Shown: positions 13,549-64,000 of the stretch, piece by piece
Layout: every line of letters starts with the position of its first letter
How positions within the stretch are numbered: the first letter of the stretch is position 1
From: Leptolyngbyaceae cyanobacterium
GTDB taxonomy: Bacteria; Cyanobacteriota; Cyanobacteriia; Phormidesmidales; Phormidesmidaceae
NCBI GenBank assembly: GCA_965263355.1
Contig: CBDHHL010000056.1
Span: 928,001-992,000 of the forward strand
Length of the DNA: 64,000 nt
Reading direction: 5' to 3'
The notes under the pieces: generated by a model
What the model saw: the letters and a program-made list of their open reading frames with translations, nothing else
Databases searched by the model: none
Told to the model about the DNA's origin: nothing
Translations under genes and position numbers: made by a program

Positions 13549-13945
13549 AGCAGTGGAATAACGAGGTTCTAATAAGCGCAGTAGGGCACATGTTGAATCT
13601 CCCTACATACTAATTCATAAGTTTCATACAAACAGACGGGCTAATGAGTATATGTGCGATTTCCAGAGCAACTTTACCGTATAAATACATAGGCCCCCAA
13701 ACGATTACTACGCCTTCAATTTCATGGACCCTCTGGAACCTATTAAGCAAAGTCATTTAGAAGCTAGATAGTAGGTACTAATTTTTAGTCCTTAAAAACA
13801 GACAAACCAAACGCTTAAAGCATCGCTAAATTGAGCAATCTTTAACAATGTGGAGCATCTAGCACGTTTTTATGCAGTGATTTTCTAACTGCTGGCAACT
13901 AGCTCCCCGTCTATCCAAGATTGCCCAGCTTAAGTTGATGGCCGA

Positions 13946-21669: not shown

Positions 21670-24597
21670 TTACAGCATCACAAAGTCACTAATATCGACT
21701 TGGCTGACCGTTGTTTGCTTGAGTAAAGCTAGCTGCTTATCGGTTGCAGCTATGCTAAGTAGTACATCGTCATCCTTTTGATTAACAGACAGTTGCCCAA
21801 ACGTCAGAGCACCATTAAGCACAAACTTATCTTGACCGTCTTGATAGTCGAGAATGGTATTTAGACCATTATCAATTGCTAAGATAAAACGATCATTGCC
21901 AGGCCCACCTTTTAACTCATCGTTACCAGGCCCACCGTCTAATAAGTCGTCGCCCCAGTTACCAAATAAATGATCATCACCAGTATTTCCTTCGAGACGA
22001 TCATCACCCCAATTGCCAAAAATTTCATCATCACCCAATCCGCCTATAAGGTCATCATCACCCCAATGACCAAGAATTCGATCATCACCAGCTAGACCGT
22101 CAATCGTATCATCGGCAGGGGTTCCCTCTAGGAAATCATCATCATTATCAGTGCCCAAGATTGTATCGTCAGAAAGTACCTGAAGCTCAAAAATGTCAGA
22201 TACTGTTTCTCCTTCATTATCGGTTGCAATAACTTCGATAGAGAAAGTACCCAGTTCACCAACTGTTGGCGTTCCAAACAAGGCTAAAGCAAAGATACTT
22301 GTAGTGAAAGTAAGCCAATCAGGTAACGGGTCGCCATTCTCTAGGGTAGCATTCAACGTTAGAGTATGGTTAGGATCAACACCATCATCCACATCCTGGA
22401 AATAGACATCTGTAGGAATGATAAAGGTAAATGATTGGTTAACAATGGCTGCTTGATCAGGCAGTTCGGTTTCTAATGTGGGTGCATCGTTAGTATTGTT
22501 AACTGTTAAATCGAAGGTTGTACCGACCACGCCTCCATTGCCATCACTTGAGGTTACCGTAATCGGTATGGCACCAACATCGTCATTCTCTGGGGTTCCA
22601 CTAAACGTGCGCGATTGTTCATCAAACATAAGCCAATCTGGCAGAGGTGTTGTTGTATAGGTTAATATGTCGCCATCAGCGTCGTTAAATGTGTCTGTAG
22701 CAAATTGAAATTCAAACAGAGTATCTTCATCTGCAATTTGATCTGGTATTGGGTTTACAAGAGTAGGTGGATTATTGTCTGAATCCGAAGTCTCATAAAG
22801 ACTCAATGTATATTCACCTGTATCATTACCGCCAATATCACTGACCATAAGCGAGTAAGTCCCCGTTTGGTCCAGGTCAAAGTCTTGCAACAGTGCATTG
22901 CCGATGCCTCCATTTTCCGGTTGCACTTCAATAGCAAGGCTCCCGTCTGGATTATAGAGACGGAACTGAGAAGCTTGCAGAATACTGAAATCATTGAGTT
23001 GTAGAGTGATGATATCGCCTTCAGTCCCATTGAAGGTGTAATGGTCTAAATCACTGGCAACCTCCAAACTACTTTCAATACTCTCCCCATAATTGATCGG
23101 TACTGAATTACCAGGGGTATTGACACTCTCTAGCGTAAAAACATAATCGCCTGTATCATTACCGCCAACATCACTGACCATAAGCGAGTAAGTCCCCGTT
23201 TGGTCCAGGTCAAAGTCTTGCAACAGTGCATTGCCGATGCCTCCATTTTCCGGTTGCACTTCAATAGCAAGGCTCCCGTCTGGATTATAGAGACGGAACT
23301 GAGAAGCTTGCAGAATACTGAAATCATTGAGTTGTAGAGTGATGATATCGCCTTCAGTCCCATTGAAGGTGTAATGGTCTAAATCACTGGCAACCTCCAA
23401 ACTACTTTCAATACTCTCCCCATAATTGATCGGTACTGAATTACCAGGGGTATTGACACTCTCTAGCGTAAAAACATAATCGCCTGTATCATTACCGCCA
23501 ACATCACTGACCATAAGCGAGTAAGTCCCCGTTTGGTCCAGGTCAAAGTCTTGCAACAGTGCATTGCCGATGCCTCCATTTTCCGGTTGCACTTCAATAG
23601 CAAGGCTCCCGTCTGGATTATAGAGACGGAACTGAGAAGCTTGCAGAATACTGAAATCATTGAGTTGTAGAGTGATGATATCGCCTTCAGTCCCATTGAA
23701 GGTGTAATGGTCTAAATCACTGGCAACCTCCAAACTACTTTCAATACTCTCCCCATAATTGATCGGTACTGAATTACCAGGGGTATTGACACTCTCTAGC
23801 GTAAAAACATAATCGCCTGTATCATTACCGCCAACATCACTGACCATAAGCGAGTAAGTCCCCGTTTGGTCCAAGTAAAAGTCTTGCAACAGTGCATTGC
23901 CGATGCCTCCATTTTCCGGTTGCACTTCAATAGCAAGGCTCCCGTCTGGATTATAGAGACGGAACTGAGAAGCTTGCAGAATACTGAAATCATTGAGTTG
24001 TAGAGTGATGATATCGCCTTCAGTCCCATTGAAGGTGTAATGGTCTAAATCACTGGCAACCTCCAAACTACTTTCAATACTCTCTCCATAACTGATTGGT
24101 ACTGAATTACCAGGGGTATTGACACTCTCTAGCGTAAAAACATAATCGCCTGTATCATTACCGCCAACATCACTGACCATAAGCAAGTAAGTCCCCGTTT
24201 GGTCGAGGTCAAAGTCTTGTAACAGTGCATTGCCGATACCTCCATTTTCCGGTTGCACTTCGATGGCAAGGCTCCCGTCTGGATTATAGAGATGAAACTG
24301 AGAAGCTTGCAGGATACTAAAATCGTTAAGCTGTAGAGTGATAATGTCATCTGCTGTCCCTTCAAAGATGTAATAATCTTCTTCTCCTGGAAAATCAATG
24401 GCATTATTAGACACACTTTGGCCATACTCTACAGTTTCAGAATCTTGATTAGTTGTTGAAGCAATGGTGTCTGCTTCAAACAAACCTATGTCCACATTGA
24501 CTAATTTTTGAGATGTTTTATTCAAATAGATAGCCTTATTCAAAGTATTCAGACTCTCTTCAGCAGTTAAAAACGTCCAAAACAAGCGGTCAGACAT
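21670..24597 (-). CDS. Secreted repeat protein: five PPC-like beta-domains, two cadherin/Ig-like (He_PIG) domains and a C-terminal RTX Ca-binding region
   Basis: DLDHYTFNGTEGD..GTYSLMVSD repeats; LPDWLxF...FSGTP; GGxGxD nonapeptides. Confidence 0.85.
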   Translation of the reverse strand: MSDRLFWTFLTAEESLNTLNKAIYLNKTSQKLVNVDIGLFEADTIASTTNQDSETVEYGQSVSNNAIDFPGEEDYYIFEGTADDIITLQLNDFSILQASQFHLYNPDGSLAIEVQPENGGIGNALLQDFDLDQTGTYLLMVSDVGGNDTGDYVFTLESVNTPGNSVPISYGESIESSLEVASDLDHYTFNGTEGDIITLQLNDFSILQASQFRLYNPDGSLAIEVQPENGGIGNALLQDFYLDQTGTYSLMVSDVGGNDTGDYVFTLESVNTPGNSVPINYGESIESSLEVASDLDHYTFNGTEGDIITLQLNDFSILQASQFRLYNPDGSLAIEVQPENGGIGNALLQDFDLDQTGTYSLMVSDVGGNDTGDYVFTLESVNTPGNSVPINYGESIESSLEVASDLDHYTFNGTEGDIITLQLNDFSILQASQFRLYNPDGSLAIEVQPENGGIGNALLQDFDLDQTGTYSLMVSDVGGNDTGDYVFTLESVNTPGNSVPINYGESIESSLEVASDLDHYTFNGTEGDIITLQLNDFSILQASQFRLYNPDGSLAIEVQPENGGIGNALLQDFDLDQTGTYSLMVSDIGGNDTGEYTLSLYETSDSDNNPPTLVNPIPDQIADEDTLFEFQFATDTFNDADGDILTYTTTPLPDWLMFDEQSRTFSGTPENDDVGAIPITVTSSDGNGGVVGTTFDLTVNNTNDAPTLETELPDQAAIVNQSFTFIIPTDVYFQDVDDGVDPNHTLTLNATLENGDPLPDWLTFTTSIFALALFGTPTVGELGTFSIEVIATDNEGETVSDIFELQVLSDDTILGTDNDDDFLEGTPADDTIDGLAGDDRILGHWGDDDLIGGLGDDEIFGNWGDDRLEGNTGDDHLFGNWGDDLLDGGPGNDELKGGPGNDRFILAIDNGLNTILDYQDGQDKFVLNGALTFGQLSVNQKDDDVLLSIAATDKQLALLKQTTVSQVDISDFVML
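22795..24435 (-). repeat. Intragenic tandem repeat, 333-bp (111-aa) unit x5
   Basis: Shadow ORFs recur at 23030, 23363, 23696 and 24029; four units are nearly identical in DNA. Boundaries approximate. Confidence 0.92.
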
Positions 24598-52504: not shown

Positions 52505-53362
52505 TCATTCTTGATAGCGGTTGTACAAAGTTTGAATTTGTGAATATATCTTTTCTCTTACACTCTCTGGACCAATCACTTCACAGTCTCCGCCATAGGG
52601 GAGTACTTCTCGTATAAACCAAAAGGTACTGGTAATTTGTCGGATCACCTGGCGTACCTGGGGTTTATCGGGTAACCATTCCACTGAGATATCTCTGCTT
52701 TTTTTACTTCGGTAGGCAAAGGCAAGACCTTTGTATAAGTGCATTTCCACCTTGAGGGTATCTAAATCATCGCGCCAGGGGCCTTTAATGGCGCTGATAG
52801 CGGCATCGGTAATGCGATCTAGTCGTAGGGTGCGGTTATGAATGAGTTCAGGGACATCTTGGGAGCCTTCGGTTTCTTCGCACCAGCAGTCGAGATACTG
52901 CCGTTCGTCTCTGGGGACGATACGGGCATGGCGGATGGTGAAGTGCCAGATGATGTCTCGGGCGTCTTGATAGGAGAGTTGAAACGGCTGCTGACGATTT
53001 ATGTAACGTTCGATATCGATGCGCCAGGGATGTACGTGACTGGTTACGAATTGTTCTAGTTCGTTACGCAGGGGTATGGTGAGTTCGCTACGGCTACACA
53101 ATAGCTGTGTAATCGTGATGGCATCTGCGATTTTGCCTGCATCGACCAGGGTCAGGCGGGCTTGGTTGAGGGCTTCGATGCGTTCCGAGGACCAGTCATG
53201 GTTAGGGGCAATTTTAAGGTCTTTGCGGGCGATGGCTTCGACGAGTTTGGAGATGTTAGGGCGCTCCCCCCAGGTCATGTTGTATTCGAGCGCGAGTGCT
53301 TCGAGCAGCGCTTTGTCGCGTTCTGAAATAGAAAGGGTAACAGATTGGCCTCGACGTCCCAT
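52505..53362 (-). CDS. WYL-domain regulator of the type I-D locus (Sll7009-like)
   Basis: N-terminal GQSVTLS..PNISKLVEAIAR, QYLDCWCEE, RTLRLDRI, WCX-like C-terminus; divergent from the cas genes. Confidence 0.85.
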   Translation of the reverse strand: MGRRGQSVTLSISERDKALLEALALEYNMTWGERPNISKLVEAIARKDLKIAPNHDWSSERIEALNQARLTLVDAGKIADAITITQLLCSRSELTIPLRNELEQFVTSHVHPWRIDIERYINRQQPFQLSYQDARDIIWHFTIRHARIVPRDERQYLDCWCEETEGSQDVPELIHNRTLRLDRITDAAISAIKGPWRDDLDTLKVEMHLYKGLAFAYRSKKSRDISVEWLPDKPQVRQVIRQITSTFWFIREVLPYGGDCEVIGPESVREKIYSQIQTLYNRYQE

Positions 53363-53508
53363 GGGGTTACTACTTTGGTCTAGAACTTATACTTTTACCT
53401 GGCTTGTACGTACACTTTAATCTAAAATGAGTTTATTTAGCCTTGACTGTCCAAATTATCGATGACAGTATAGGTATATTCAAGTCGTCAAGTACAGTTT
53501 ATAGACTT

Positions 53509-54528
53509 ATGACGATACAACCTTCAGGTGACTACCAAAATTTACTCGGTGACGTCAAACAACGCATCCGCTCAGCGCAATATGATGCTTTGAAATCGGT
53601 CAATCGTGAGCTGATTGCCCTGTACTGGGAAATTGGGCAGATGATCGTCACTCGTCAGCAAACTACGGGTTGGGGGCGTTCGGTGGTGGAGCAGTTATCA
53701 AAAGACCTCCGGGCAGAGTTCCCAGGTATTAGTGGGTTCTCGGCTCGTAATATTTGGAGAATGAGGGATTTCTATCTTAATTATCGTACTAATGAAAAAC
53801 TGCCACCATTGGTGGCAGAAATTGGCTGGACCCACAATTGTGTCATTTTAGAAAAATGTAAGGATGATTTGGAGCGTGAGTTTTACCTGCGCATGACGCG
53901 TAAATTTGGTTGGACGAAGAATGTTTTAATTCATCAAATTGATAATAAGACCTATGGGAAAACTCTCACGAGTCAGACTAACTTTGATGGAGCTTTACCT
54001 GAAGAGATTCGAAATCAAGCCAAGCTTGCTGTAAAAGACGAGTATACGTTTGATTTTCTAGAGCTAGCCGATGAACATAGTGAACGGCAGCTAGAGCAGG
54101 CCATTTTGAGTAAAGTTGAACCCTTTCTAAGAGAAATGGGTGGCATGTTTACGTTTGTGGGTAGCCAGTATCGCCTGGAAATCAGTGGTGAGGAGTATTT
54201 TATTGATCTGTTGCTCTATCATCGGACTTTGAAGTGTTTGATTGCGGTAGAGCTGAAGATTGGGAAGTTTTTACCAGAGTATGTGGGCAAGATGCAGTTT
54301 TATTTGGCTGCCTTGGATGCTCGGGTGCGGTTGCCGGATGAGAATTCGGCGATTGGCATCATTCTTTGTAAATCGAAAGATCGGACCATCGTAGAGTATG
54401 CGCTGCGGGAGTCGAATAAGCCAATTGGGGTGGCCACATATCAGATTGTGTCAGCGGTGCCTCCAGAGTTGGAGGGGCAGCTACCGGCACCGGAACAGAT
54501 AGCGAAATTATTGGGAGATGTTAATTAA
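53509..54528 (+). CDS. YhcG/DUF1016 PD-(D/E)XK nuclease-domain protein
   Basis: LYWEIG, GFSARN, KDEYTFDFL, IDLLLYHR..VELK, GKMQFY; start set at ATG 53509 (ORF track starts at 53443). Confidence 0.88.
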   Translation: MTIQPSGDYQNLLGDVKQRIRSAQYDALKSVNRELIALYWEIGQMIVTRQQTTGWGRSVVEQLSKDLRAEFPGISGFSARNIWRMRDFYLNYRTNEKLPPLVAEIGWTHNCVILEKCKDDLEREFYLRMTRKFGWTKNVLIHQIDNKTYGKTLTSQTNFDGALPEEIRNQAKLAVKDEYTFDFLELADEHSERQLEQAILSKVEPFLREMGGMFTFVGSQYRLEISGEEYFIDLLLYHRTLKCLIAVELKIGKFLPEYVGKMQFYLAALDARVRLPDENSAIGIILCKSKDRTIVEYALRESNKPIGVATYQIVSAVPPELEGQLPAPEQIAKLLGDVN

Positions 54529-54551: not shown

Positions 54552-56729
54552 ATGTATAGCATTACCTTAAAGCCAGTCTATTCATGTCCTGCTCAACAAC
54601 TGCCTGATGGAGTTATTTTGCCTGATGGCTGGGAGTCTTTGGCTTGGCATCAGGTCGAGACCTTTAAAGCACTCAACGATCCTGATGTCGATGTTGTTTT
54701 TAACACAGCAATGACCGGAGATGGTAAGAGTTTAGCTGCCTATCTCAAGGTATTTCAGGAGTATTACTGTGCTCTAGGTCTTTATCCCACCAATGAGTTA
54801 GCCAGAGATCAAGAAAATCAACTGCTGGAGAATATCCAAAAATTTAAGCCATCCCATAGGCCAAGAGTAAATCGTCTGAGTAGTGCTGAGTTAGAGATTT
54901 ATGCAGAAACTGAAGGGTTGACTAAAGCTGGGTCCATAGGAACACTAACAAACCAATCCGAAGTCATCGTCACTAACCCTGATATCCTGCACTACATTTA
55001 CCGGGGTGCCTATGTAATGAAACAGGACACGCCAGATAAGCTATGGAATCGGATTGACCGAAATTTTGACTTATTTATCTTTGATGAGTTTCATATTTTT
55101 GCGGCACCCCAAGTGGCCAGTGTTATCAACACGCTGTTGTTAATTCGATTGACCAATCGGCCTAAAAAGTTTTTATTCTTGTCTGCGACGCCTGATGAAC
55201 AACTTGTGGGACGCCTGAGAACTGCTGGGTTTCGTTGTCAGGTGATTGATCCACAGAAAGAGAACAAATATAATTTTCCAGATAGTGCTGAACAAGCTAT
55301 TGAGTTAAATGGTAAACACTGGCGGCAAATTGCCAGGGCTATAGATCTAAACTTTGTAGCAGTTGAATCGACGTCTAAAGCATCGGAAACCTGGATCAAA
55401 GAGAATTCAGAACAAATTCTGCAGCATTTTCAACAAGGTCCTGGCACTAAGGGGGCAATCATTCTGAACTCTATTGCTTCAGTTAAGCGGCTGGTACCTT
55501 TTCTACAAAACTTGTTTCAGCCCCATGGATTGACTGTTGGTGAAAATACAGGACTTTCAGGTAAAGAAAAACGAGCGCAATCTTTAGAGGCTGATTTGGT
55601 TATTGGTACCAGCACCATTGATGTGGGTGTGGACTTTAAGATTAACTTTTTAATTTTTGAATCAGCCGATGCTGGTAATTTTATTCAGCGATTGGGGCGA
55701 TTGGGCAGACATGATGGCTATGTGAAAGCAGGCAAGGAAATTGCATTCAATGGGTTTACCGCCTATGCCCTGATTCCTCAGTTCTTTGCAGAACGGCTAT
55801 TTACAAAAGGAGACCAGCCACCACTTAAAACGGGTAAGAGTTATGATCGTCAGTCTTTGCACAACATCATCAGAGACAATTATCGAAATATCAACGACTT
55901 TCAGGGTTATTATTCTCGCTGGGGTGCTTATCAGTCCCTGGCATTGGGTAAGAAGTTGGCCGACAAGAAAATTCAAGAACAGTATGCAGGTAGTTTAGCG
56001 GTCTTTCAAGCAACCTGTGAAAAGGTTTTTAATCGTCGCTTTAAGGAATTGTCCGGTCGGGCTAGCAGTTGGCGCAAAGACTGGCAGGCATTATCCGGGA
56101 AGAAAGATGGAAGTAACCCTATTTTTGAAGATGCCTGTAGTTTTCGAGGGGCTAGTCCGCTGCAGTGTGGACTATATGATCTGACTGAAGAAAACCCAGT
56201 GGATCGGTATAAGACCTATTCACTACCGGGCATCCTCAGCAATTTAGAGGTAGAGGTATGGACAAAAGCTGCATTTTTGAGATCCCTCAAAGAAACGGTT
56301 AAAGCGACTGGACAGTCGATACCCAAAGGCAGATTTGAACATTGCCTGATTTTTCTAAAGCTCCGTGCCTACCGTGAAGAACGATTGGATTGGAAGTTTA
56401 CGTATCCAGGTGAACTGACTAAGCAGACTAATCAGGTACAGGTACTGACAGGACTTGAAATCTGGCAACCTGATAACCCATGGGCCAGCAGTGTTAATAA
56501 AAAGCTACGGAATCAAGGAATAGTCTGCTATGGCCTTCATAAACCTGTTCAGGAAGTACGGCATAAGCTGCGACTACCAATGCATTTTCAGCTTTATTCC
56601 ATCAGCGATCACTATAGTTATCACGATCCTAAAGCACCGTATTCAATAGCCTTTGGGCAAAGCGCTTTGATGCTGGATACACTGACTGGCTGGCTCAAGC
56701 ACAAGAGCAGTGAACCACTTATTTTTTAG
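54552..56729 (+). CDS. cas3: Type I-D Cas3' helicase
   Basis: TAMTGDGKS, YPTNEL, DEFH, SAT, TSTIDVGVDF, QRLGRLGRH; no HD domain. Confidence 0.93.
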   Translation: MYSITLKPVYSCPAQQLPDGVILPDGWESLAWHQVETFKALNDPDVDVVFNTAMTGDGKSLAAYLKVFQEYYCALGLYPTNELARDQENQLLENIQKFKPSHRPRVNRLSSAELEIYAETEGLTKAGSIGTLTNQSEVIVTNPDILHYIYRGAYVMKQDTPDKLWNRIDRNFDLFIFDEFHIFAAPQVASVINTLLLIRLTNRPKKFLFLSATPDEQLVGRLRTAGFRCQVIDPQKENKYNFPDSAEQAIELNGKHWRQIARAIDLNFVAVESTSKASETWIKENSEQILQHFQQGPGTKGAIILNSIASVKRLVPFLQNLFQPHGLTVGENTGLSGKEKRAQSLEADLVIGTSTIDVGVDFKINFLIFESADAGNFIQRLGRLGRHDGYVKAGKEIAFNGFTAYALIPQFFAERLFTKGDQPPLKTGKSYDRQSLHNIIRDNYRNINDFQGYYSRWGAYQSLALGKKLADKKIQEQYAGSLAVFQATCEKVFNRRFKELSGRASSWRKDWQALSGKKDGSNPIFEDACSFRGASPLQCGLYDLTEENPVDRYKTYSLPGILSNLEVEVWTKAAFLRSLKETVKATGQSIPKGRFEHCLIFLKLRAYREERLDWKFTYPGELTKQTNQVQVLTGLEIWQPDNPWASSVNKKLRNQGIVCYGLHKPVQEVRHKLRLPMHFQLYSISDHYSYHDPKAPYSIAFGQSALMLDTLTGWLKHKSSEPLIF

Positions 56730-56841
56730 TTTCAGTCCCGGTTTTCGGGATTAGGGATGTCGATAGAAATGAAACAGCTTTCGCCATTAAGTACAGACAG
56801 ACGTGTTTCAGTCCCGATTGTCGGGATTTATATTAACTTCG
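56729..56841 (-). CRISPR. Degenerate mini-CRISPR array: two repeats of about 37 nt and one spacer of about 39 nt
   Basis: Repeats GTTTCAGTCCCGGTTTTCGGGATTAG... (56729) and GTTTCAGTCCCGATTGTCGGGATTTA... (56805). The reverse complement ends in CCCG-loop-CGGGACTGAAAC, like the cyanobacterial I-D repeat as I recall it. Spacer on the minus strand: ACGTCTGTCTGTACTTAATGGCGAAAGCTGTTTCATTTC. Confidence 0.88.
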
Positions 56842-56912
56842 ACAAATTGACCTATCGAACTCTATCAACCAATTTCAATCATATATGGTTTAAGCAATCA
56901 AAGATTGAAAAG

Positions 56913-56933
56913 GTAACGTCAGTCTTAACTTAA
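56913..56933 (+). promoter_or_regulatory. Self-target site A of the mini-array spacer, with GTA PAM
   Basis: GTA|ACGTCAGTCTTAACTTAA versus spacer ACGTCTGTCTGTACTTAA: 15/18, mismatches at positions 6, 11 and 12. Confidence 0.7.
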
Positions 56934-57032
56934 CATATTTAGAAAAAGGTATTGCTATCGGCTATCGATTAAGTTAGCTTCAGATTGTCAGAGGAAGTAA
57001 TTCATTCGTATTAGTTAACTAGGAGTATATCA

Positions 57033-57233
57033 ATGCGACGAATCAAGACGAAAGGAAAAATTGATCTCTTATTAAAGGTACTTTCCGATCACGAATGGCA
57101 TTGGGGAGAAGAGCTTGCTACTAAAGTAGGATGGCGATTTGGTGCAACAGTTAAAACAGCAAGAGACAAAGGATATCAAATTGAAAGTGAGCGTGTTGGT
57201 CTTCAGTGGAGGTATCGACTATTGAGAGATTAG
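57033..57233 (+). CDS. 66-aa winged-HTH protein (BirA N-terminal/HTH_11-like)
   Basis: AGGAG RBS; LLKVLSDHEWHWGEELATKVG...GYQIES...YRL. Confidence 0.75.
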   Translation: MRRIKTKGKIDLLLKVLSDHEWHWGEELATKVGWRFGATVKTARDKGYQIESERVGLQWRYRLLRD

Positions 57234-57294
57234 CTAAAACTTAGATTAAAGTAGCTCTTCGCGAATAACTGTTCCATAAGTTGAAGAGCTCCAC

Positions 57295-57431
57295 AAGGAA
57301 GCCTGATTAATAGCTTTCGGCGTTAAGAACAGGCAGACGTAGTCTAAACCCCCTCGCTTTTTGATAGCAGGCTGGTTAAGTCTTAAGAGCTGATGAACTG
57401 ACTCGAATTTGCAAAGTTCTCAGGCTTCCTT
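57295..57431 (+). ncRNA. Candidate structured RNA/leader element closed by a 12-bp inverted repeat
   Basis: AAGGAAGCCTGA (57295-57306) pairs with TCAGGCTTCCTT (57420-57431); internal stems AGCTT/GAGCT, TTAAGA/TCTTAA, AGAC/GTCT, GAACT/AGTTC. Strand is inferred. Confidence 0.45.
57312..57340 (-). other. Self-target site B of the mini-array spacer (25/29, no GTN PAM)
   Basis: Plus strand AGCTTTCGGCGTTAAGAACAGGCAGACGT versus spacer AGCTTTCGCCATTAAGTACAGACAGACGT (56776-56804); the PAM position reads ACT. Confidence 0.85.
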
Positions 57432-57468
57432 TCTTATAGTTTCAGTCGATGAGTACCTCAAGTGAAAC

Positions 57469-57911
57469 ATGTTTATTCAAAGCCTTGAGAATCTGTATTC
57501 CAAAGTGCCAAAGATTTTAGAGCAAGTTCCCTATCTCAAGCTATTAATACTTTTTGGGTCTAGGGCAAAAGGTGACAATACATCCAACAGTGATTGGGAT
57601 TTTGCTTTTCTATGTGATGAAAATGAGCGTTCTCATTATGAACAAGGTGGTTGGGATAACTTCAGGATCAGTAGCTTGTTAGGACAGGTACTTGAACTTC
57701 CTAGTCATGCTATAGACATCGTGGATCTTAACGAGTGTCCTGAACTTTTAGCCCATCAAATAGCTCAGGACGGAAGGTCATCTACGAAAAAGAACCCAGC
57801 GAGTTTGAACGGTTTCGACAAAGCCATCTAAAGAGTCCAGAGCAAATACAGCAAATAGGACAAGACTTAAGTTCAAGCATTCAAGAGCGTCTACGACAGT
57901 GGAGTGCATGA
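57469..57911 (+). pseudogene. MNT (MntA-like) antitoxin with an apparent 1-nt deletion near 57774
   Basis: LFGSRAKGD..NSDWDFA and IDIVDL motifs. Annotated frame ends at 57831; the shifted frame reads (G)KVIYEKEPSEFERF...WSA to TGA 57911, overlapping the HEPN ATG. Confidence 0.75.
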
Positions 57912-58348
57912 CAATGAATTTTAACTCTGTTCGTTTCAGACTTAACTTGATTCTGGATTATCTAGAAGAGCTGAGACCGCTTGGAACAGTGACGTTTGAT
58001 GAATTAACTGATGATCGATACAAATATCGTTCTGCTGAACGATTGTTGGAAATCATTATCCAGGCTGCCATTGATATCAACAACCATCTGATATCAGGAC
58101 TGAGCAAACGACGACAGGCATCAAATACCGACAATTTTCTGGAAATGGCTAAATTAAATATCCTGACTCCAGAAATAGCGCAAGATTTATCGGCCTCCAG
58201 CAATTTTCGAAATCGTTTGGCCCATGAATATTACAGCATTGATCCATCCATTGTTTTTCAGTCCATTACTAAAGCTTTAGAACAATATCCACAGTACGTG
58301 CAACAAGTGCTTGAATTTGTAGACAACTTTGAGATGAATGATGAGTAA
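57908..58348 (+). CDS. HEPN (DUF86/HepT-like) RNase toxin
   Basis: SAERLLEIIIQAAIDI and intact RNRLAHEY (Rx4HxY) motif; overlaps the cas10d start. Confidence 0.88.
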   Translation: MTMNFNSVRFRLNLILDYLEELRPLGTVTFDELTDDRYKYRSAERLLEIIIQAAIDINNHLISGLSKRRQASNTDNFLEMAKLNILTPEIAQDLSASSNFRNRLAHEYYSIDPSIVFQSITKALEQYPQYVQQVLEFVDNFEMNDE

Positions 58349-61300
58349 TAATCTCAACGACGATAATCTTGATTGGTTAGATGACGATATTGGGGATGAA
58401 CAGTCGTCTAACCGAACGATTGAACCCACTCAGCGTGAGCTTCTGACCTTAAAGCTTTTACGCTCCGCGATTCACACACAGAATCCTGATGATGCCGTAA
58501 TGCAGGATTTTGCTGAGTATGTATTACCTAACTTGTTGAAAATTACCATTGGCGTTACGGCTAAGGGAGGTAAGTTTTTTGACAAGTTAGATCAAGAAAA
58601 GGGGAAAGAAAACGTTCGGCGTGATAATGCAGCGGATCAGTCTCTGAATACTCACTTGCTTAATGGTTTATTTCCAGCAAATCTAATCGAACAACGGCTT
58701 GAACAACTGGATACAACGATTCAACGATTAGTGCGAGAGCAAGAGCGTCGTTTGGTCATGGCGGCTTTTATTCTGCATGATTTTGAGAAATTTCCTGATG
58801 TTGATGGTGAGATTAGAAGCTTGCCTGGTGAAGAACGTCTAAAACAACATCGTCAGGTTATCGACAAAAAAATACAACAGCTTGGGCTAGATCACTTTAT
58901 TAATCCCCAAAATCCAACGGCATACCGAGAGTATCTGGATGATCTGTTATGTATGGCTTACAACGCCCAAAGACGTTGGGATACGAATTGGAATTTTTCA
59001 GAATATGGGTTGCAGCCAGTCTTAAAAGACAAAATTTTGCGAAATTTGACTGAGTTAACCTGTTTAGCTGATTCCTTGGCATCCATCATCAAACATCCCC
59101 AAGATGCCACCAGTTATAAGTTCAAAGAACTACTCCATAGCTTGAGTGACGGACAAATCAGCCTTACCTATCATAGCATTTCAGAAAACAGGGGGGTGTT
59201 GACCAACGTAGTCAATAATGCCGTTATGGATGCCCATATTGCGCTCAATACCCCAGATAAAAAGCATTATGAACCGCTACTCTATCTACCAACTGGGGTT
59301 ATTTATCTGGCCTATGGGAAACCACCTCCGGTGGCACTTAATGATTTGCCTGAGCGGGTGATCGCCAAAATCAAACAACTCTGTTTTGAACAGCTAAGAC
59401 GTCGCCAAACTGGTTTTAGTCGGGATGGTAAAGGCATGAAATATGCCGACTACTACACGCTTTTCTGTGACACTCGGCAGTTAATGTACATCGCCTTAGA
59501 TGCCACCCTCAGAATCTTATCTAACAATAAAAAGTCTGTTGGTCCTAGCCGCAGTGCAAAACTCAAAACGTTTCAAGAAAAAGGTGCTCTTTCAGCGGAT
59601 TATGATTTTCAACTGGGGGATGATATTCGGATTGATCAGCTAGCTGAGTTCGGCGATGTGATTTGCCGTAAAGTGTGGGGTGAGCGATGCGATCTCATCC
59701 AAACCCTATACAAAGAAAGAACCAAAAAACGGAAGAAAAACAAAGACTTATCAGAACTTCCGGAGTTAAAGCTATTGCCTGAACAACTGGTTATCAAGCT
59801 GGCTGAGTTTTTAGGTCTATCAGAGTATCTACCGCAACTCCGAGAAATCCAGACTATTAACGCTACTCTAAAAGAGAAAAAAGTCAAAGGCAGTACCGGT
59901 GGCATTCCCTACGAATGGTATTTTATCTCCACTAAACTAATTCAGGGTTCAGGTATCGAAAATATTCGAGAGATTGCCGAGAAAATTATTGACCATGCTG
60001 CAAACTTAATTGAGCCTGTTATCGCCCAATATGAAGTTGCTGATGGCTGGGATGACTTAAGATCTTGGGTAAATCAAGTGGTGATGCTGCCACAGGCCAC
60101 CATAACTAAAACACCCAAAGATCAGACCGATATCTTTCTAAAGGAATTGGCCAGCTATCAGGTGGCCAAAAAAGTTGGACGTGGCAAACTAGCGATTTGC
60201 TCAGTCTCCCATTCTGCCTACTCTGTAAAAGAGCAAATGGAATCAGAGGTATTATTTACTCCCCAGGTGTATACCAATAAACAGCTACTGGGTGGTTCTA
60301 ACGCGAAACGCAATATTTCCAGCATTGCAGGGTTAGAAATGATGCTACGTCAGATTCTAATGAACCAAACTCAAGCAGTGGGCAAACGGTTTGAAGATGG
60401 CAAATATCGTTATCTCTACTTTTACCCTACCTACTACTTCACCCCGGAAACCAGTCGTTTCTTACAAAAAGCTTATACAGGCATTGCCCAAACTCGATTT
60501 AGTACCAATCTACGCAATCACTTTATCTCTAAGGATTTGGTCGTTGATTTTAGTCGTGAGCACTATCAGGCGGTTGATTCATTCTTGATCGATGATGATT
60601 TAGAGCGCAAGACAACCTTACCTGAAGATGATCCAGACTATAAACGCGATCGCACCTTTAAACTCTCTTACCCAGACGATCAGCCATTAACCTTTTTCTT
60701 TATGGCATTGCCACCGGGACGAGACCCCACCGATACCGAATCTTGGGTAATGCCAGCCTGGTTAGCCTTTGCTAGTCCAATGATTCTGGATGTCAAAACC
60801 GTGGTCTCAGAATCTCCTGTCCCCCCATTTAATGATGGTGCGGAGTTTGAAGAAAGTGTCTTTTTGGATAGTGCCCCCCAAGCCTTTAGAGCCCTACTCA
60901 AACAGGATAGGTTCCGGTTAGATTACATCCTTGAAGGTTGGCAAACCCCAGACGGCACCCAGCAAGCTTCTCCCCTTAATGCCTTAACCAGTGCCTATGC
61001 AATTCACCTGGATGTGAATGCCAAACAAGGTAAGGGAGGATATGACGCTAACTGGGGCAAGTTGACAGAGCTAGCCAAAGATTTAGAAACCAGTCCGCTC
61101 TATGTATTCAATTACTTAAATCGTTGGCTTCGTAATCAGAAAAAAGAATCTATACGTATAGAAAAGATCAAACTCTATGCCTACCACTTTTATCCCTGTT
61201 TTGACCCGCATACAAAATTAATCGTACTTGACTTGGAGGAAATGCTTGTGTGTGACGAGAAATCTGCGCTGAGACATCCGCAAAGACTGACCGAATTGTA

Positions 61301-61757
61301 CAGACGGTTTTATCGTGCCGATAAACGATATAACCCCAAAAGCAATGCCGTTTTGAAACCGATCAAGGAAGCCGCTGATGTTATTTTGAATGCGGATACT
61401 GATGGGTTTAGGGGAGAAGACTTAGTCTTTTTAGTTGCTGCTAAGAATACAAAGTTAATGGATCGAATTCATTCGTCAGGTGCGGAAGGCTATCCTGTCT
61501 TTAAACGAAATGAGCGCGACCAAGAACGAGAATCTATCCTAGAATTTGCTCGATATTTTGTCCATGAGGTATTTGAAAAATCCTTTGCTAGTGATCGTGG
61601 TCGGTTAGCAGGCAGACAACTCAATCTTCTGCGTGATGCGTGTGAATTCATCTATCGTCTTGAACAAGACAAAGAAAATAAAAAAGATAAAGATAAAGCA
61701 GACAGTAAGCAAATCAAGAACGACGTTAACTCATCGAACGATAATGGCGAGGATTAA
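58338..61757 (+). CDS. cas10d: Type I-D large subunit Cas10d (Csc3) with N-terminal HD domain
   Basis: DQSLNTHLLNG, LHDFEK HD motif, RGVLTN, YTNKQ, DTESW. Confidence 0.92.
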   Translation: MMSNNLNDDNLDWLDDDIGDEQSSNRTIEPTQRELLTLKLLRSAIHTQNPDDAVMQDFAEYVLPNLLKITIGVTAKGGKFFDKLDQEKGKENVRRDNAADQSLNTHLLNGLFPANLIEQRLEQLDTTIQRLVREQERRLVMAAFILHDFEKFPDVDGEIRSLPGEERLKQHRQVIDKKIQQLGLDHFINPQNPTAYREYLDDLLCMAYNAQRRWDTNWNFSEYGLQPVLKDKILRNLTELTCLADSLASIIKHPQDATSYKFKELLHSLSDGQISLTYHSISENRGVLTNVVNNAVMDAHIALNTPDKKHYEPLLYLPTGVIYLAYGKPPPVALNDLPERVIAKIKQLCFEQLRRRQTGFSRDGKGMKYADYYTLFCDTRQLMYIALDATLRILSNNKKSVGPSRSAKLKTFQEKGALSADYDFQLGDDIRIDQLAEFGDVICRKVWGERCDLIQTLYKERTKKRKKNKDLSELPELKLLPEQLVIKLAEFLGLSEYLPQLREIQTINATLKEKKVKGSTGGIPYEWYFISTKLIQGSGIENIREIAEKIIDHAANLIEPVIAQYEVADGWDDLRSWVNQVVMLPQATITKTPKDQTDIFLKELASYQVAKKVGRGKLAICSVSHSAYSVKEQMESEVLFTPQVYTNKQLLGGSNAKRNISSIAGLEMMLRQILMNQTQAVGKRFEDGKYRYLYFYPTYYFTPETSRFLQKAYTGIAQTRFSTNLRNHFISKDLVVDFSREHYQAVDSFLIDDDLERKTTLPEDDPDYKRDRTFKLSYPDDQPLTFFFMALPPGRDPTDTESWVMPAWLAFASPMILDVKTVVSESPVPPFNDGAEFEESVFLDSAPQAFRALLKQDRFRLDYILEGWQTPDGTQQASPLNALTSAYAIHLDVNAKQGKGGYDANWGKLTELAKDLETSPLYVFNYLNRWLRNQKKESIRIEKIKLYAYHFYPCFDPHTKLIVLDLEEMLVCDEKSALRHPQRLTELYRRFYRADKRYNPKSNAVLKPIKEAADVILNADTDGFRGEDLVFLVAAKNTKLMDRIHSSGAEGYPVFKRNERDQERESILEFARYFVHEVFEKSFASDRGRLAGRQLNLLRDACEFIYRLEQDKENKKDKDKADSKQIKNDVNSSNDNGED
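61248..61757 (+). CDS. cas11d: Probable internally translated small subunit Cas11d
   Basis: GGAGG at 61235-61239, then in-frame ATG 61242 and GTG 61248, before LTELYRRFYRA. Confidence 0.6.
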   Translation: MCDEKSALRHPQRLTELYRRFYRADKRYNPKSNAVLKPIKEAADVILNADTDGFRGEDLVFLVAAKNTKLMDRIHSSGAEGYPVFKRNERDQERESILEFARYFVHEVFEKSFASDRGRLAGRQLNLLRDACEFIYRLEQDKENKKDKDKADSKQIKNDVNSSNDNGED

Positions 61758-61760
61758 ACA

Positions 61761-62369
61761 ATGGTTAAACTATTGCAAGCTGGACAATCCTACACCTTTA
61801 GTAAAATCTTTGACCTCAAAATCCCGGCTGATGAATTGGCCAGTGAGTTTGGGTATACCTTTAGTCGGCAAAAATTAAAGTTAGGACGCTATCAGGGAGA
61901 ACTTGATCGAATTGTGGAATTGCAATCACGCATCGAAGAAATTTTGCCTTATGTTGATCTAGCAAACGAAACATCTCGCCGAGAAATTTTAATTTCTCGA
62001 ATTGTCTCAGAGGTAGTTCACTATACTAAAGCCCAATTGCGCATTGAGTATCCCATCAAAGTTACGGAACAATTGCAAGGGTACCTTGATTATTTATTGC
62101 GGACTCAAACAGAACTCATTGTGATTGAGGCTAAGCGCCAGGATTTAGACTATGGATTTACCCAACTGGTTGCTGAAATGATTGCCCTTGATCAATGGGA
62201 GCGTACACCCACTCAATCGTCGTTGCTAGGTGCAATCACAACAGGGTCGGTATGGCAATTTGGCGTCTTATATCGAGAGAATAAGCATATCGAAAAGGGC
62301 TTAGATAGCTACCGTGTCCCTGAAGATATAGATGACTTGATGCGGATATTAGTAGCTGCATTACCTTAA
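61761..62369 (+). CDS. PD-(D/E)XK-like hypothetical protein inserted in the cascade operon
   Basis: GYLDYLL...IVIEAKR...QLVAEM..., GAITTGSVWQF. Confidence 0.7.
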   Translation: MVKLLQAGQSYTFSKIFDLKIPADELASEFGYTFSRQKLKLGRYQGELDRIVELQSRIEEILPYVDLANETSRREILISRIVSEVVHYTKAQLRIEYPIKVTEQLQGYLDYLLRTQTELIVIEAKRQDLDYGFTQLVAEMIALDQWERTPTQSSLLGAITTGSVWQFGVLYRENKHIEKGLDSYRVPEDIDDLMRILVAALP

Positions 62370-62415
62370 CTGTGTTTTGAATGTCCAGCAAACTATTAAA
62401 CCAGGAAAATTAATT

Positions 62416-63426
62416 ATGACTTTGCTCAAAACCCTCGATTCTAAGTTTTTCCATAACGAAATTCCCTATAAACCCATGGGAAAATATGCACATTTTCTGA
62501 CTGTTCGTATCACCGAGTCTTATCCTCTATTTCAAACAGATGGAGAACTCAATAAAGCAAGGGTTCGAGCTGGAATCGTAAATGCTCAACCTGTCAGGCG
62601 ATTAAGCATGTTTAAGCGTAAACAATCAACGCCAGAACGTTTGGTAGGCAGAGAACTTTTACGTAACTATGGCTTTATGACTGCAGAAGACTGTGAGTAT
62701 AACGTCAAATTTGCCATGGATAATCCAGACTGTATTATCTATGGATTTGCCATTGGTGACTCTGGTTCAGAAAAGTCAAAGGTGGTTGTAGATACTGCTT
62801 TTTCTATTACACCCTTTGATAAATCCCATGAAACTTTTACCCTAAATGCACCATTTGAGAATGGAACAATGGCCTCTAAAGGAGAAGGTGGAGGAAAGTT
62901 AGGAGAAATTACAAATCGCATCAATCAGCAAGACCATATTCGCCCCCAGGTTTTTTTCCCAAGCATTGTCACCCTCAAAGATCCAACGGAAGCAGGCTTT
63001 TTGTATGTGTTCAACAATATCTTACGTACTCGTCATTATGGAGCTCAGACGACACGTACAGGACGGGTACGGAATGAGTTAATTGGTGTTGTTTTTGCTG
63101 ATGGTGAAATTGTTAGCAACCTGCGCTGGACTCAAGCTATCTACGATTTAATGAAAGATGGTGGCCATTTAGATATTCCAGACCCTTTAAATGAGGATGA
63201 TGTTGTACAAGCCGCTAAAGATGCGATCGCAAATCTCATGTCAGATGAATTTATTGTCCATACAGACTTTATCGGGGATGATTTTCAATCTGTACTGGAT
63301 GAAGTTAAGTCTTTAACCGGTACTGAAAAAGGTATCAAGTCAATTTTAGAAGCCGCTGATGCCGAAGCTAAAACCTATGCCTCTAAGCACATCAGTAGCA
63401 AGAAAAAAGCTGCCGCCAAGAAATAA
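62416..63426 (+). CDS. cas7d: Type I-D Cas7 (Csc2)
   Basis: FKRKQSTPERLVGRELLR, CEYN..PDCIIYGFAIG, YGAQTTRTG; start set at ATG 62416. Confidence 0.93.
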   Translation: MTLLKTLDSKFFHNEIPYKPMGKYAHFLTVRITESYPLFQTDGELNKARVRAGIVNAQPVRRLSMFKRKQSTPERLVGRELLRNYGFMTAEDCEYNVKFAMDNPDCIIYGFAIGDSGSEKSKVVVDTAFSITPFDKSHETFTLNAPFENGTMASKGEGGGKLGEITNRINQQDHIRPQVFFPSIVTLKDPTEAGFLYVFNNILRTRHYGAQTTRTGRVRNELIGVVFADGEIVSNLRWTQAIYDLMKDGGHLDIPDPLNEDDVVQAAKDAIANLMSDEFIVHTDFIGDDFQSVLDEVKSLTGTEKGIKSILEAADAEAKTYASKHISSKKKAAAKK

Positions 63427-63428
63427 TC

Positions 63429-64000
63429 ATGCCAATTATCTATCGTTGCACCCTAGAACTGCACGATAGCTTGTACTTTGCCACCCGTGAGATTGGACGG
63501 CTTTATGAAACCGAACCGATTTTGCATAATTATGCTCTTTCCTACGTTTTAGGGCTGGTGGACAACGAACAATTAGCCACTACTGTTGCTGAAGAGTACA
63601 GCTATCGTAACTTTTGTGCAGAACAAATTCCTCGATATCAGGAACAACTCACTCCCCTTACGCAGCAAGGTATCTATGTCACCCCAGCCAGGTCGCTCAC
63701 CCATACCAGTGTGCTTAATACCTGGAAGTATGCCGACAACCGCTACCACGTAGAAATGCAGGCCACTGAAAAGAACATTCCCAGTTTTGGGCGTACCAAA
63801 GAGATTGCGATTGAGAGCCAGTTTGAGTTTTTTGTGTTCTCAGAACAGACTTTGAAACTACCCCGATGGGTGCGTATCGGTAAGTGGGCCAGCAAAGCTG
63901 AGCTAACAGCTTTTGAACTCCCTAAACCACAACTCAATAAGGCGAATAAGGAGTTTACCTATGCCTATCCACTCAATCCGTTGGATGTGATGTTTACTAA
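63429..64000 (+). CDS. cas5d: Type I-D Cas5 (Csc1), truncated by the window end
   Basis: MPIIYRCTLELHDSLYFATREIGRLYETEPILHNYAL...LPRWVRIGKW; not in the ORF track. Confidence 0.9.
   Translation, partial: MPIIYRCTLELHDSLYFATREIGRLYETEPILHNYALSYVLGLVDNEQLATTVAEEYSYRNFCAEQIPRYQEQLTPLTQQGIYVTPARSLTHTSVLNTWKYADNRYHVEMQATEKNIPSFGRTKEIAIESQFEFFVFSEQTLKLPRWVRIGKWASKAELTAFELPKPQLNKANKEFTYAYPLNPLDVMFT

Follow-up and report, generated by a model that had tools for sequence, protein, structure and literature searches.

CreT is a small RNA toxin that is encoded beside creA in type I-B CRISPR systems. In the CreTA modules, as summarised in PMC10120712, a mini-array guide together with the effector complex Cascade represses the toxin gene, and loss of Cascade frees the toxin. 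CreR (Liu et al. 2023, 10.1101/2023.03.10.532045) is a degenerate mini-CRISPR as well, whose pseudo-spacer partly matches a site by the effector promoter that is flanked by a protospacer-adjacent motif (PAM), with autorepression of Cascade as the outcome. In type II, the repeat-derived RNAs called tracr-L or scaRNA guide the effector to a short partial promoter match and repress without cleavage (PMC10120712). For type I-D, repeat-like sequences are enriched beside cas3, and long cas3-cas10d spacers are present in 18% of the loci (Shmakov et al. 2023, PMC10120712). Self-regulation by mini-arrays is a recent idea, and for type I-D it is based on computation only. We have analysed a locus of this last kind in a window of 64,000 nucleotides (nt) from a Leptolyngbyaceae cyanobacterium (assembly GCA_965263355.1, contig CBDHHL010000056.1, positions 928,001 to 992,000 of the forward strand), in which two degenerate repeats and one spacer-like guide lie between cas3' and cas10d, and in which the guide matches two further sites, here called A and B.

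We consider it likely that this unit is a regulatory mini-CRISPR of a cyanobacterial I-D system, CreR-type and with a CRISPR RNA (crRNA)-like product, with A bound as promoter DNA and B most likely as RNA or single-stranded DNA (ssDNA). The dual-site design is the new part. Its second site carries a signature of the Cas7 register and appears to be best explained as an RNA or single-strand target.

The initial annotation took the architecture to be undescribed, and this part of it has to be withdrawn: the I-D mini-array, the cargo and the promoter-proximal target are all of kinds already known from PMC10120712. As far as the available part of that paper goes, the I-D mini-arrays are likewise two-repeat units with one spacer in the cas3-cas10d intergenic place, their position is conserved and their cargo variable, toxin-antitoxin and regulator genes follow downstream, and partial targets lie in the promoters of the cargo or of cas10d. 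The differences are that only one kind of target is described there, with no further targets having a valid PAM and seed in the cases examined, and that a full-length PAM-less sense site with six-base periodicity goes unmentioned in that part. Apparently undescribed is thus the second site, a long PAM-less one in sense orientation. In the literature searched, outside the protospacer coordinates of PMC10120712 (Supplementary file 6), no paper was found to report that a mini-array guide has a second target which lacks a PAM or is recognised at the RNA level; some of the I-D targets found by the BLASTN-based search of that paper could be sites of the B type. In the accessible portions of the I-D review PMC10212523 the terms 'mini-array' and 'repeat-like' are absent, as are 'I-D' and 'RNA target' in those of the preprint 10.1101/2024.10.29.618823 (2026 version).

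The other systems differ more clearly. The CreR experiments concern types I-B, I-E and V-A and not I-D, for which creA-like elements are mentioned (Fig. S7), and they deal with a single DNA target and no RNA-level one; in the present locus, the target is separated from the effector genes by protein-coding cargo that includes a toxin-antitoxin pair. In contrast to CreTA, the first gene after A encodes a conserved 66-aa winged helix-turn-helix (wHTH) protein, no creT is present there, and the toxin of the operon is the protein HepT with its antitoxin MntA. The tracr-L or scaRNA case differs by its single-protein effector, Cas9, and by another RNA architecture. Finally, the I-D Cascade of Synechocystis binds single-stranded RNA (ssRNA) specifically, at about 11 nM and with any flanking sequence (Schwartz et al. 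2022, PMC9123187). Self-regulation is not the subject of that work, to judge from the part available. B would be a substrate of just this PAM-independent and sequence-specific kind.

The mini-array and its two sites

The coordinates of all features are collected in Table 1. According to the initial annotation, two degenerate I-D repeats start at the last base of the cas3' stop codon, and the analysis agrees with it. The TAG stop shares its G with the first base of repeat R1, and the 24-nt repeat block found there, GTTTCAGTCCCGGTTTTCGGGATT, is 22/24 identical between 56729-56752 and 56805-56828, which are 76 nt apart, with the two changes in the loop. The repeat pattern GTTTCAGTCCCGNTTNTCGGGATT occurs at two places in the 64 kb, both of them in the mini-array, compared to none expected from 100 shuffles. 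The hairpin and the handle are also as first described: on the minus strand both repeats end in the ACTGAAAC handle after a CCCG...CGGG hairpin, and the minus-strand fold forms both hairpins with a z-score of -3.36, a value that none of 200 shuffles equals. The minus-strand matches of R1 and R2 to the Rfam model CRISPR-DR52 are weak compared to its gathering score of 50. The guide comes out with the same sequence as was read initially, and cleavage by Cas6 at its usual place, the 3' base of the hairpin in each repeat, would yield a crRNA-like RNA of 76 nt.

Table 1. Features of the locus in window coordinates.
Feature	Coordinates	Strand	Details
cas3' (type I-D helicase)	54552..56729	+	725 aa; TIGR03158 377.4 bits (cut-off 69.1); Pfam DEAD, Cas3-like_C_2
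R1, degenerate I-D repeat	56729..56765	-	Rfam CRISPR-DR52 23 bits; downstream of the guide on the RNA strand, 3' hairpin
Predicted processed crRNA-like RNA	56737..56812	-	76 nt, from handle to base of R1 hairpin
Long-range helix	56759..56861		56759-56766 GTCGATAG with 56853-56861 CTATCGAAC; from fold
Spacer-like guide	56766..56804	-	position 1 = complement of 56804; positions 1-29 = ACGTCTGTCTGTACTTAATGGCGAAAGCT
R2, degenerate I-D repeat	56805..56841	-	Rfam CRISPR-DR52 21.6 bits; gives Cas6 hairpin and 8-nt handle ACUGAAAC ahead of the guide
Site A	56913..56933	+	GTA PAM 56913-56915 and 18-nt partial protospacer 56916-56933
Predicted promoter of small gene	56952..56980	+	-35 TTGCTA 56952-56957; 17-nt spacer with ATCGGCTATCGAT; -10 TAGCTT 56975-56980
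66-aa wHTH protein gene	57033..57233	+	homologues in the same place in family-1 relatives
Structured element around B	57295..57431	+	closed by perfect 12-bp helix 57295-57306 / 57420-57431
Site B	57309..57340	+	plus strand complementary to guide positions 1-32 (27/32); flank ACT, no GTN PAM
Third, decayed repeat-like piece	57434..57474	+	matches 13/14 and 12/15; ends on mntA start codon
mntA (nucleotidyltransferase antitoxin)	57469..57831	+	120-aa open reading frame; NF047752 72.5 bits (cut-off 60); Pfam Polbeta
hepT (HEPN RNase toxin)	57899..58348	+	NF047751 96.6 bits (cut-off 60); Pfam HepT-like
cas10d (csc3)	58338..61757	+	TIGR03174 931.8 bits
csc2 (cas7d)	62377..63426	+	TIGR03157 355.5 bits, above cut-off
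csc1 (cas5d)	63429..63998, cut at the window end	+	TIGR03159 160.6 bits, above cut-off

The long-range helix of the same fold pairs the distal end of R1 with the region past R2 and encloses the spacer and R2. Its equivalent in relatives is GACGGAG / CTCCGTC, with changes on both sides.

Relatives were collected through Cas10d, for which tblastn confirmed 288 stretches in genome contigs; the best 80 were kept, corresponding to 74 loci, all cyanobacterial by title. The C-terminus of Cas3' was found in 70 sequences (69 of the loci and the window). Of these 70, 58 carry a repeat-like motif at most 260 nt from the cas3' stop, usually with its first copy on the stop codon, and the other 12 carry none; two of the 58 (L008 and L065) have only the copy at the stop. 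The mini-array, i.e. two repeat-like sequences around one spacer-like sequence in the cas intergenic region, is accordingly conserved in position in the relatives. A real array is present in 30 loci, where it follows the operon and is read in the cas direction, opposite to the mini-array. Among the 26 relatives that have both, 12-24 of the first 24 repeat bases, which comprise handle and hairpin, are kept in R1 and 17-24 in R2, and divergence is seen in the 13 distal ones.

Conservation of the spacer extends across genera, in three recognisable families that are probably homologous and that each have matching A and/or B sites. The window belongs to family 1, the consensus guide of which is AAATACGTCTGCACTTAATGGCGTAAGCT. 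The plasmid collection gave only short matches to cas3' and the nucleotidyltransferase, in three records, and the 14-nt gap between cas3' and cas10d on the Synechocystis plasmid pSYSA holds no mini-array.

We now consider the two sites, starting with A. The claimed match at 56916-56933, with 15/18 paired bases and a GTA PAM, is borne out: all guide positions from 1 to 18 pair except 6, 11 and 12, pairing does not continue past 18, and the count becomes 14/15 if positions 6, 12 and 18 are disregarded. When the 1547-nt region from R2 to cas10d was shuffled 2000 times, no GTN-flanked seed of 14/15 appeared, the maximum being 12. A scan of the whole window with the guide returns the spacer, A and B only, plus a chance-level match of 19/30 at 13809. 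In the relatives, A-type sites, defined by a GTN PAM and a seed of at least 12/15 (positions 1-18 without 6, 12 and 18), are present in 33 of the 58 regions, 76-160 nt past R2. Their pairing ends at position 17 or 18, and beyond this point the agreement is random, as seen from the position-wise mismatch counts. The GTN flank is found in 26 of the 38 distinct pairs tabulated.

In families 1 and 2 we infer from conservation that promoters lie near A. The predicted -35 of the window begins 18 nt downstream of the site, in a block conserved in an alignment of 19 family-1 sequences. The order in this family is A, a short gap of variable length, a block TTGCAA/TTGACA and, after a 17-nt spacer, the block TAGNTT, and in family 2 an extended -10 (TGnTAnnnT) stands directly downstream of A, between A and B. 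The match at A is partial, seed-proximal, PAM-flanked and beside a predicted promoter, as in CreR.

Some further elements were seen around this promoter. Between the predicted -35 and -10, the near-palindrome ATCGGCTATCGAT at 56958-56970 is almost invariant in the family-1 loci and may serve the wHTH protein as an operator through which it regulates its own gene. In six of the 33 loci with A (L002, L009, L024, L041, L045 and L071) the minus strand bears another GTN-flanked seed site, just upstream of A and back to back with it, the two forming a palindrome, e.g. GACTTATTTAAC-G-GTTAAATAAGTC; in the window no such minus-strand PAM-flanked site is found (best 5/15). By eye, a tandem second A seems to be present on the plus strand in L049, L061 and L062.

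Site B was first noted as a 25/29 match at 57312-57340 with no PAM, and it holds in the somewhat longer form listed in Table 1. It is a direct copy of the spacer, matching at 25/30 by the 30-position count, plus two G-U pairs in the window; none of the 2000 shuffles reaches 25/30 (maximum 20). B-type sites, with a guide match of at least 20/30, are present in 42 of the 58 regions, and none of the 42 has a GTN flank, while 35 have an A-N-T flank. Both sites occur together in 24 of the 58 regions.

The distance of B from R2 depends on the family. It is 135-299 nt in 25 regions (families 2 and 3 and a few others), where B begins 5-12 nt after the extended -10, at roughly +1 to +32 of the transcript predicted there. 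In family 1 the distance is 467-562 nt, with the wHTH gene between A and B, and in the window the predicted -10 is about 320 nt upstream of B, with a whole gene in between. The initial description of a wHTH gene bracketed by the two sites is therefore valid for family 1 and not elsewhere, where A and B are about 45 nt apart.

In family 1, B is part of a structured element. The helix that closes it, GAGGGAAGC/GCTTCCCTC, is present in 16 family-1 sequences, and its G-U pairs are mismatches on the other strand. The family-1 consensus around B folds better on the plus strand, with -16.2 kcal/mol compared to -10.8 kcal/mol on the minus strand. Rfam has nothing for this element, its only other results being the weak CRISPR-DR52 matches and two chance-level rows. 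Further downstream, the third, decayed repeat-like piece resembles the cas3' stop and R1 with the hairpin deleted, and it is probably the scar of a cassette exchange by recombination between repeats.

Six-base periodicity and the nature of site B

When a crRNA is held on the Cas7 backbone, every sixth base is discounted from the pairing. The guide and B behave in this way. In 36 distinct guide/B pairs, positions 6, 12, 18, 24 and 30 are mismatched in 24, 27, 25, 29 and 32 pairs, respectively, which is 137 of 180 cells (76%) and about the level of unconstrained bases, as compared to 108 of 792 cells (14%) for the other positions from 4 to 29. Positions 14-17, 23 and 25-29 each show a mismatch in no more than 5 of the 36 pairs, and positions 1-3 in about 20. 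Family 1 taken by itself (n=18) shows the periodicity, and so do the other families (n=20 distinct pairs). We take it as the likely signature of pairing inside a Cas7 filament; for type I-F1, the part of PMC10120712 available cites pairing that disregards every sixth base.

The guide itself displays the same rhythm. Its variability in the 18 family-1 sequences peaks at positions 6, 12, 18, 24 and 30, the last two of which A does not reach. The constraint on positions 19-29, with 24 and 30 free, requires a full-length partner, as A stops at 18, and since B is the only full-length partner present, this constraint points to B. In the window and 57 related loci, the spacer would thus have been retained for so long that its conservation shows the six-base rhythm of the Cas7 filament.

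Spacer/target covariation in related cas3'-cas10d regions, which the initial annotation had proposed to look for, was found. The identity between a guide and the B of its own locus is 22.1, compared to 19.3 with the B of other family-1 loci, and none of 10000 permutations is as high. In addition, positions 1-6 have changed in concert in the lineage of the window: the guide reads ACGTCT instead of the family's AAATAC, A reads ACGTCA instead of AAATAA or AAATAG, and B reads ACGTCT instead of ACTTAC or ACCTAC. A strand test by wobble-compatible substitutions (71 vs 36 cells, all positions) was dropped as too weak.

On these comparative grounds, B is most likely bound as RNA or as exposed ssDNA. 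Canonical recognition of double-stranded DNA is unlikely, since B has no PAM and mostly no match at positions 1-3. The RNA reading is favoured by three points, namely that in B it is the operon's sense strand that is complementary to the guide, that the helix around B, with its G-U pairs, favours the plus strand, and that I-D Cascade binds ssRNA in vitro.

It is also conceivable that Cascade binds B as DNA, through a non-template strand exposed by transcription, in an open complex or R-loop, or in a PAM-independent mode, and acts as a roadblock in the transcription unit. The guide-complementary strand is indeed the non-template strand, I-D Cascade binds ssDNA with high affinity according to the accessible part of PMC9123187, and B of family 2, at about +1 to +32, lies where the DNA is melted at initiation. 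However, the initiation bubble exposes only about 13 nt, the family-1 B, including that of the window, comes after a whole gene and far from the -10, and the plus-strand helix points to a function in RNA. We regard this explanation as unlikely.

Quite improbable, in our view, is that B is a functionless relic of a duplicated spacer-repeat unit from a longer array, kept alike by descent or gene conversion. It would explain that B is a direct copy with a downstream flank (AATCTCAACCCCC in relatives) resembling the decayed start of a repeat, that a third decayed repeat is found at 57434-57474, and that the spacer and B of the window begin with six bases that are unusual and shared by the two. In a neutral relic, however, all positions would diverge, while B hardly varies at positions 14-17, 22-23 and 25-29 and is free at every sixth, across families whose flanks cannot be aligned, and is kept in 42 of the 58 regions. 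Gene conversion, on the other hand, would homogenise the sixth positions, yet these are the ones mismatched in 76% of the cells.

Two guides that share one target would give the same every-sixth pattern, and B, derived from a spacer-repeat duplication, might then be a second guide-like pseudo-spacer on the minus strand. We find this highly improbable: no Cas6 hairpin or intact handle lies beside B, where the flank is TTGAGATT or TTGAGACT and the adjoining sequence variable, no third full-length partner exists in the window or between R2 and cas10d in the relatives (best same-sense match at most 19/30), and the helix around B favours the plus strand. Hardly credible at all is a Cas-free antisense RNA at B, or a use of the spacer, A and B as operators of the wHTH protein. 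Guide and B can form a long duplex (25/30 and two G-U pairs), and a protein of DNA-binding type is encoded between A and B, but neither a free RNA duplex nor a protein operator would explain why selection is relaxed at precisely every sixth position, B is present in families 2 and 3 with no wHTH gene between or beside the sites, and the GTN PAM is conserved at A (26/38 distinct pairs).

Proposed mechanism

In the regulatory mini-CRISPR that we favour, the two-repeat unit would be transcribed from the minus strand, and Cas6 would trim the transcript to a guide of about 76 nt, to be loaded into the I-D Cascade (Cas10d-Csc2-Csc1). At A, the GTA PAM and the 18-nt seed-proximal pairing would place Cascade on DNA just upstream of the -35 of the predicted promoter of the wHTH gene, which probably also drives mntA-hepT-cas10d-csc2-csc1. 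As the pairing stops at 18, Cas3' would not be licensed, and Cascade would repress its own operon along with the toxin-antitoxin cargo; this block of the promoter without Cas3' licensing is drawn by analogy with CreR in other subtypes. Transcripts that escape would carry B, open to binding by the same Cascade, and such binding would bring in a further level of control past the promoter, post-transcriptional or co-transcriptional in kind; its effect on the transcript might concern stability, translation of the next gene, tethering or titration. When Cascade or guide is scarce, the operon would be released, with the wHTH gene, mntA-hepT and the Cascade genes. The design suggests that self-cleavage is avoided, the DNA site being short and the long site being without PAM or seed.

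The initial annotation had spoken of an RNA-guided control module. That the guide addresses its own operon is supported by the comparative evidence, while the repression, the processing of the RNA and the control of HepT are steps that we infer.

A more far-reaching version, which we offer only tentatively, is that one crRNA acts at two levels across many genera, with Cascade on promoter DNA at A and on the operon transcript at B. If true, the ability of I-D Cascade to bind ssRNA without a PAM would have a physiological role and a substrate in nature, and this would be a first case of a type I effector used as a guided RNA-binding regulator. B is a concrete candidate for the purpose of the RNA binding by this type I/III hybrid complex. 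If B is bound as RNA, the abundance of Cascade would be coupled to the transcription and fate of the transcript that encodes the HepT toxin, a coupling that bears on how CRISPR loci become hard to lose.

A number of points weigh against the proposal. The 74 loci are the best 80 of 288 matches and are phylogenetically related. The two-site design is not universal, as among the 58 regions 9 have only A, 18 only B and 7 neither; the B-only regions include a Microcoleus group without an A candidate. The window ends inside csc1, and cas6 and the locus's own CRISPR array fall outside it. A minus-strand promoter for the mini-array was not identified, and a simple consensus scan of 56650-57550 returned no promoter-like and no terminator-like sites. 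The fold of the B element is only modestly better than that of shuffles (z-score -1.8), and covariation in its closing helix is sparse. Some mismatches of B are conserved without being wobbles, such as guide position 21, where G faces G in 13 of 18 family-1 pairs, and the excess of wobble-compatible mismatches is weak (37 vs 18 cells at paired positions, 12 vs 8 distinct types). B appears to have arisen by duplication of a spacer-repeat unit, its flank being like a decayed repeat start, and short-tract gene conversion could explain part of the likeness between spacer and B in the window; the duplication accounts for the origin of B and not for its maintenance. Finally, the binding described in the available part of PMC9123187 was measured in vitro with the Synechocystis complex and a fully matching target, with no natural substrate known.

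The small regulator and the neighbouring genes

The assignment of the 66-aa product as a wHTH protein, made initially from the sequence, is supported by its predicted fold and weakly by score. The AlphaFold2 model, built from an alignment of 21 sequences, has a predicted local distance difference test (pLDDT) value of 85.4, with three helices (residues 9-19, 25-31 and 36-46) and a beta-hairpin wing (strands 50-55 and 58-63). The best Foldseek matches are winged-helix repressors of the NolR, ArsR and SmtB type, with query TM-scores (TMq) of 0.57-0.73 and E-values of only 0.02 and weaker, and neither Pfam nor NCBIfam gives a match. The protein is thus a putative DNA binder.

One relative (L002, 4870-5556) encodes a 229-aa protein in which a homologue of the 66-aa wHTH domain is joined to an MNT nucleotidyltransferase domain, and this fusion links the small wHTH regulator functionally to MntA-type antitoxins. 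Upstream wHTH paralogues are found in L021, L023, L037 and L043, with no clear mini-array alongside. Ten family-2 loci (L003, L005, L007, L011, L014, L018, L026, L043, L047 and L056) have a small orphan open reading frame (ORF) about 100 nt past B as the first gene after this site. It starts with MA(D/E)Y..QLELFDL, is preceded by a GGAGG ribosome-binding site and has no counterpart in the window.

The genes of the locus were confirmed by the NCBIfam profile cut-offs, with Pfam as a second library. The type I-D signature set is complete, as Cas10d/Csc3, Csc2, Csc1 and the I-D Cas3' all score above their cut-offs, and the MNT-HEPN-cas10d operon named in the initial annotation is confirmed in the same way for MntA, HepT and Cas10d. 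The order of the cargo, with the MntA nucleotidyltransferase followed by the HepT HEPN RNase, is that of a type VII toxin-antitoxin pair. The start of hepT is likely the ATG at 57908 or 57914, its 3' end overlaps the start of cas10d by 11 nt, and at about 58210-58230 the DNA encodes the RNRLAH stretch (Rx4H) of HepT.

An apparent one-base frame break was observed in mntA near 57772-57775 (in the part 57760-57911). After IAQDG, the ORF continues with 19 unrelated residues and stops at 57831. The other frame encodes KVIYEKEPSEFERFRQ..., like the homologues, and ends at a TGA (57909-57911) that overlaps the hepT ATG (ATGA, 57908-57911). The break is either an assembly error or the mark of a truncated antitoxin beside an intact HepT toxin.

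Between cas10d and csc2 there is a 202-aa ORF (61761-62369) without a Pfam or NCBIfam match. Full-length homologues (51-72% identity) stand in the same place in 8 related loci, doubled in two of them, and fragments are found in 2 more; the ORF is optional cargo within the effector operon. Directly upstream of cas3', the window encodes a WYL/WCX-domain protein (52505-53362, minus strand) and a YhcG/DUF1016 nuclease of the PD-(D/E)xK type (53443-54528), and a WYL regulator is found upstream of cas3' on Synechocystis pSYSA too. Elsewhere in the window, at 22810-24342 and unrelated to the mini-array, lies a tandem repeat with a period of 333 nt and 4.6 copies that are 98% identical, which is probably a repeated protein domain.

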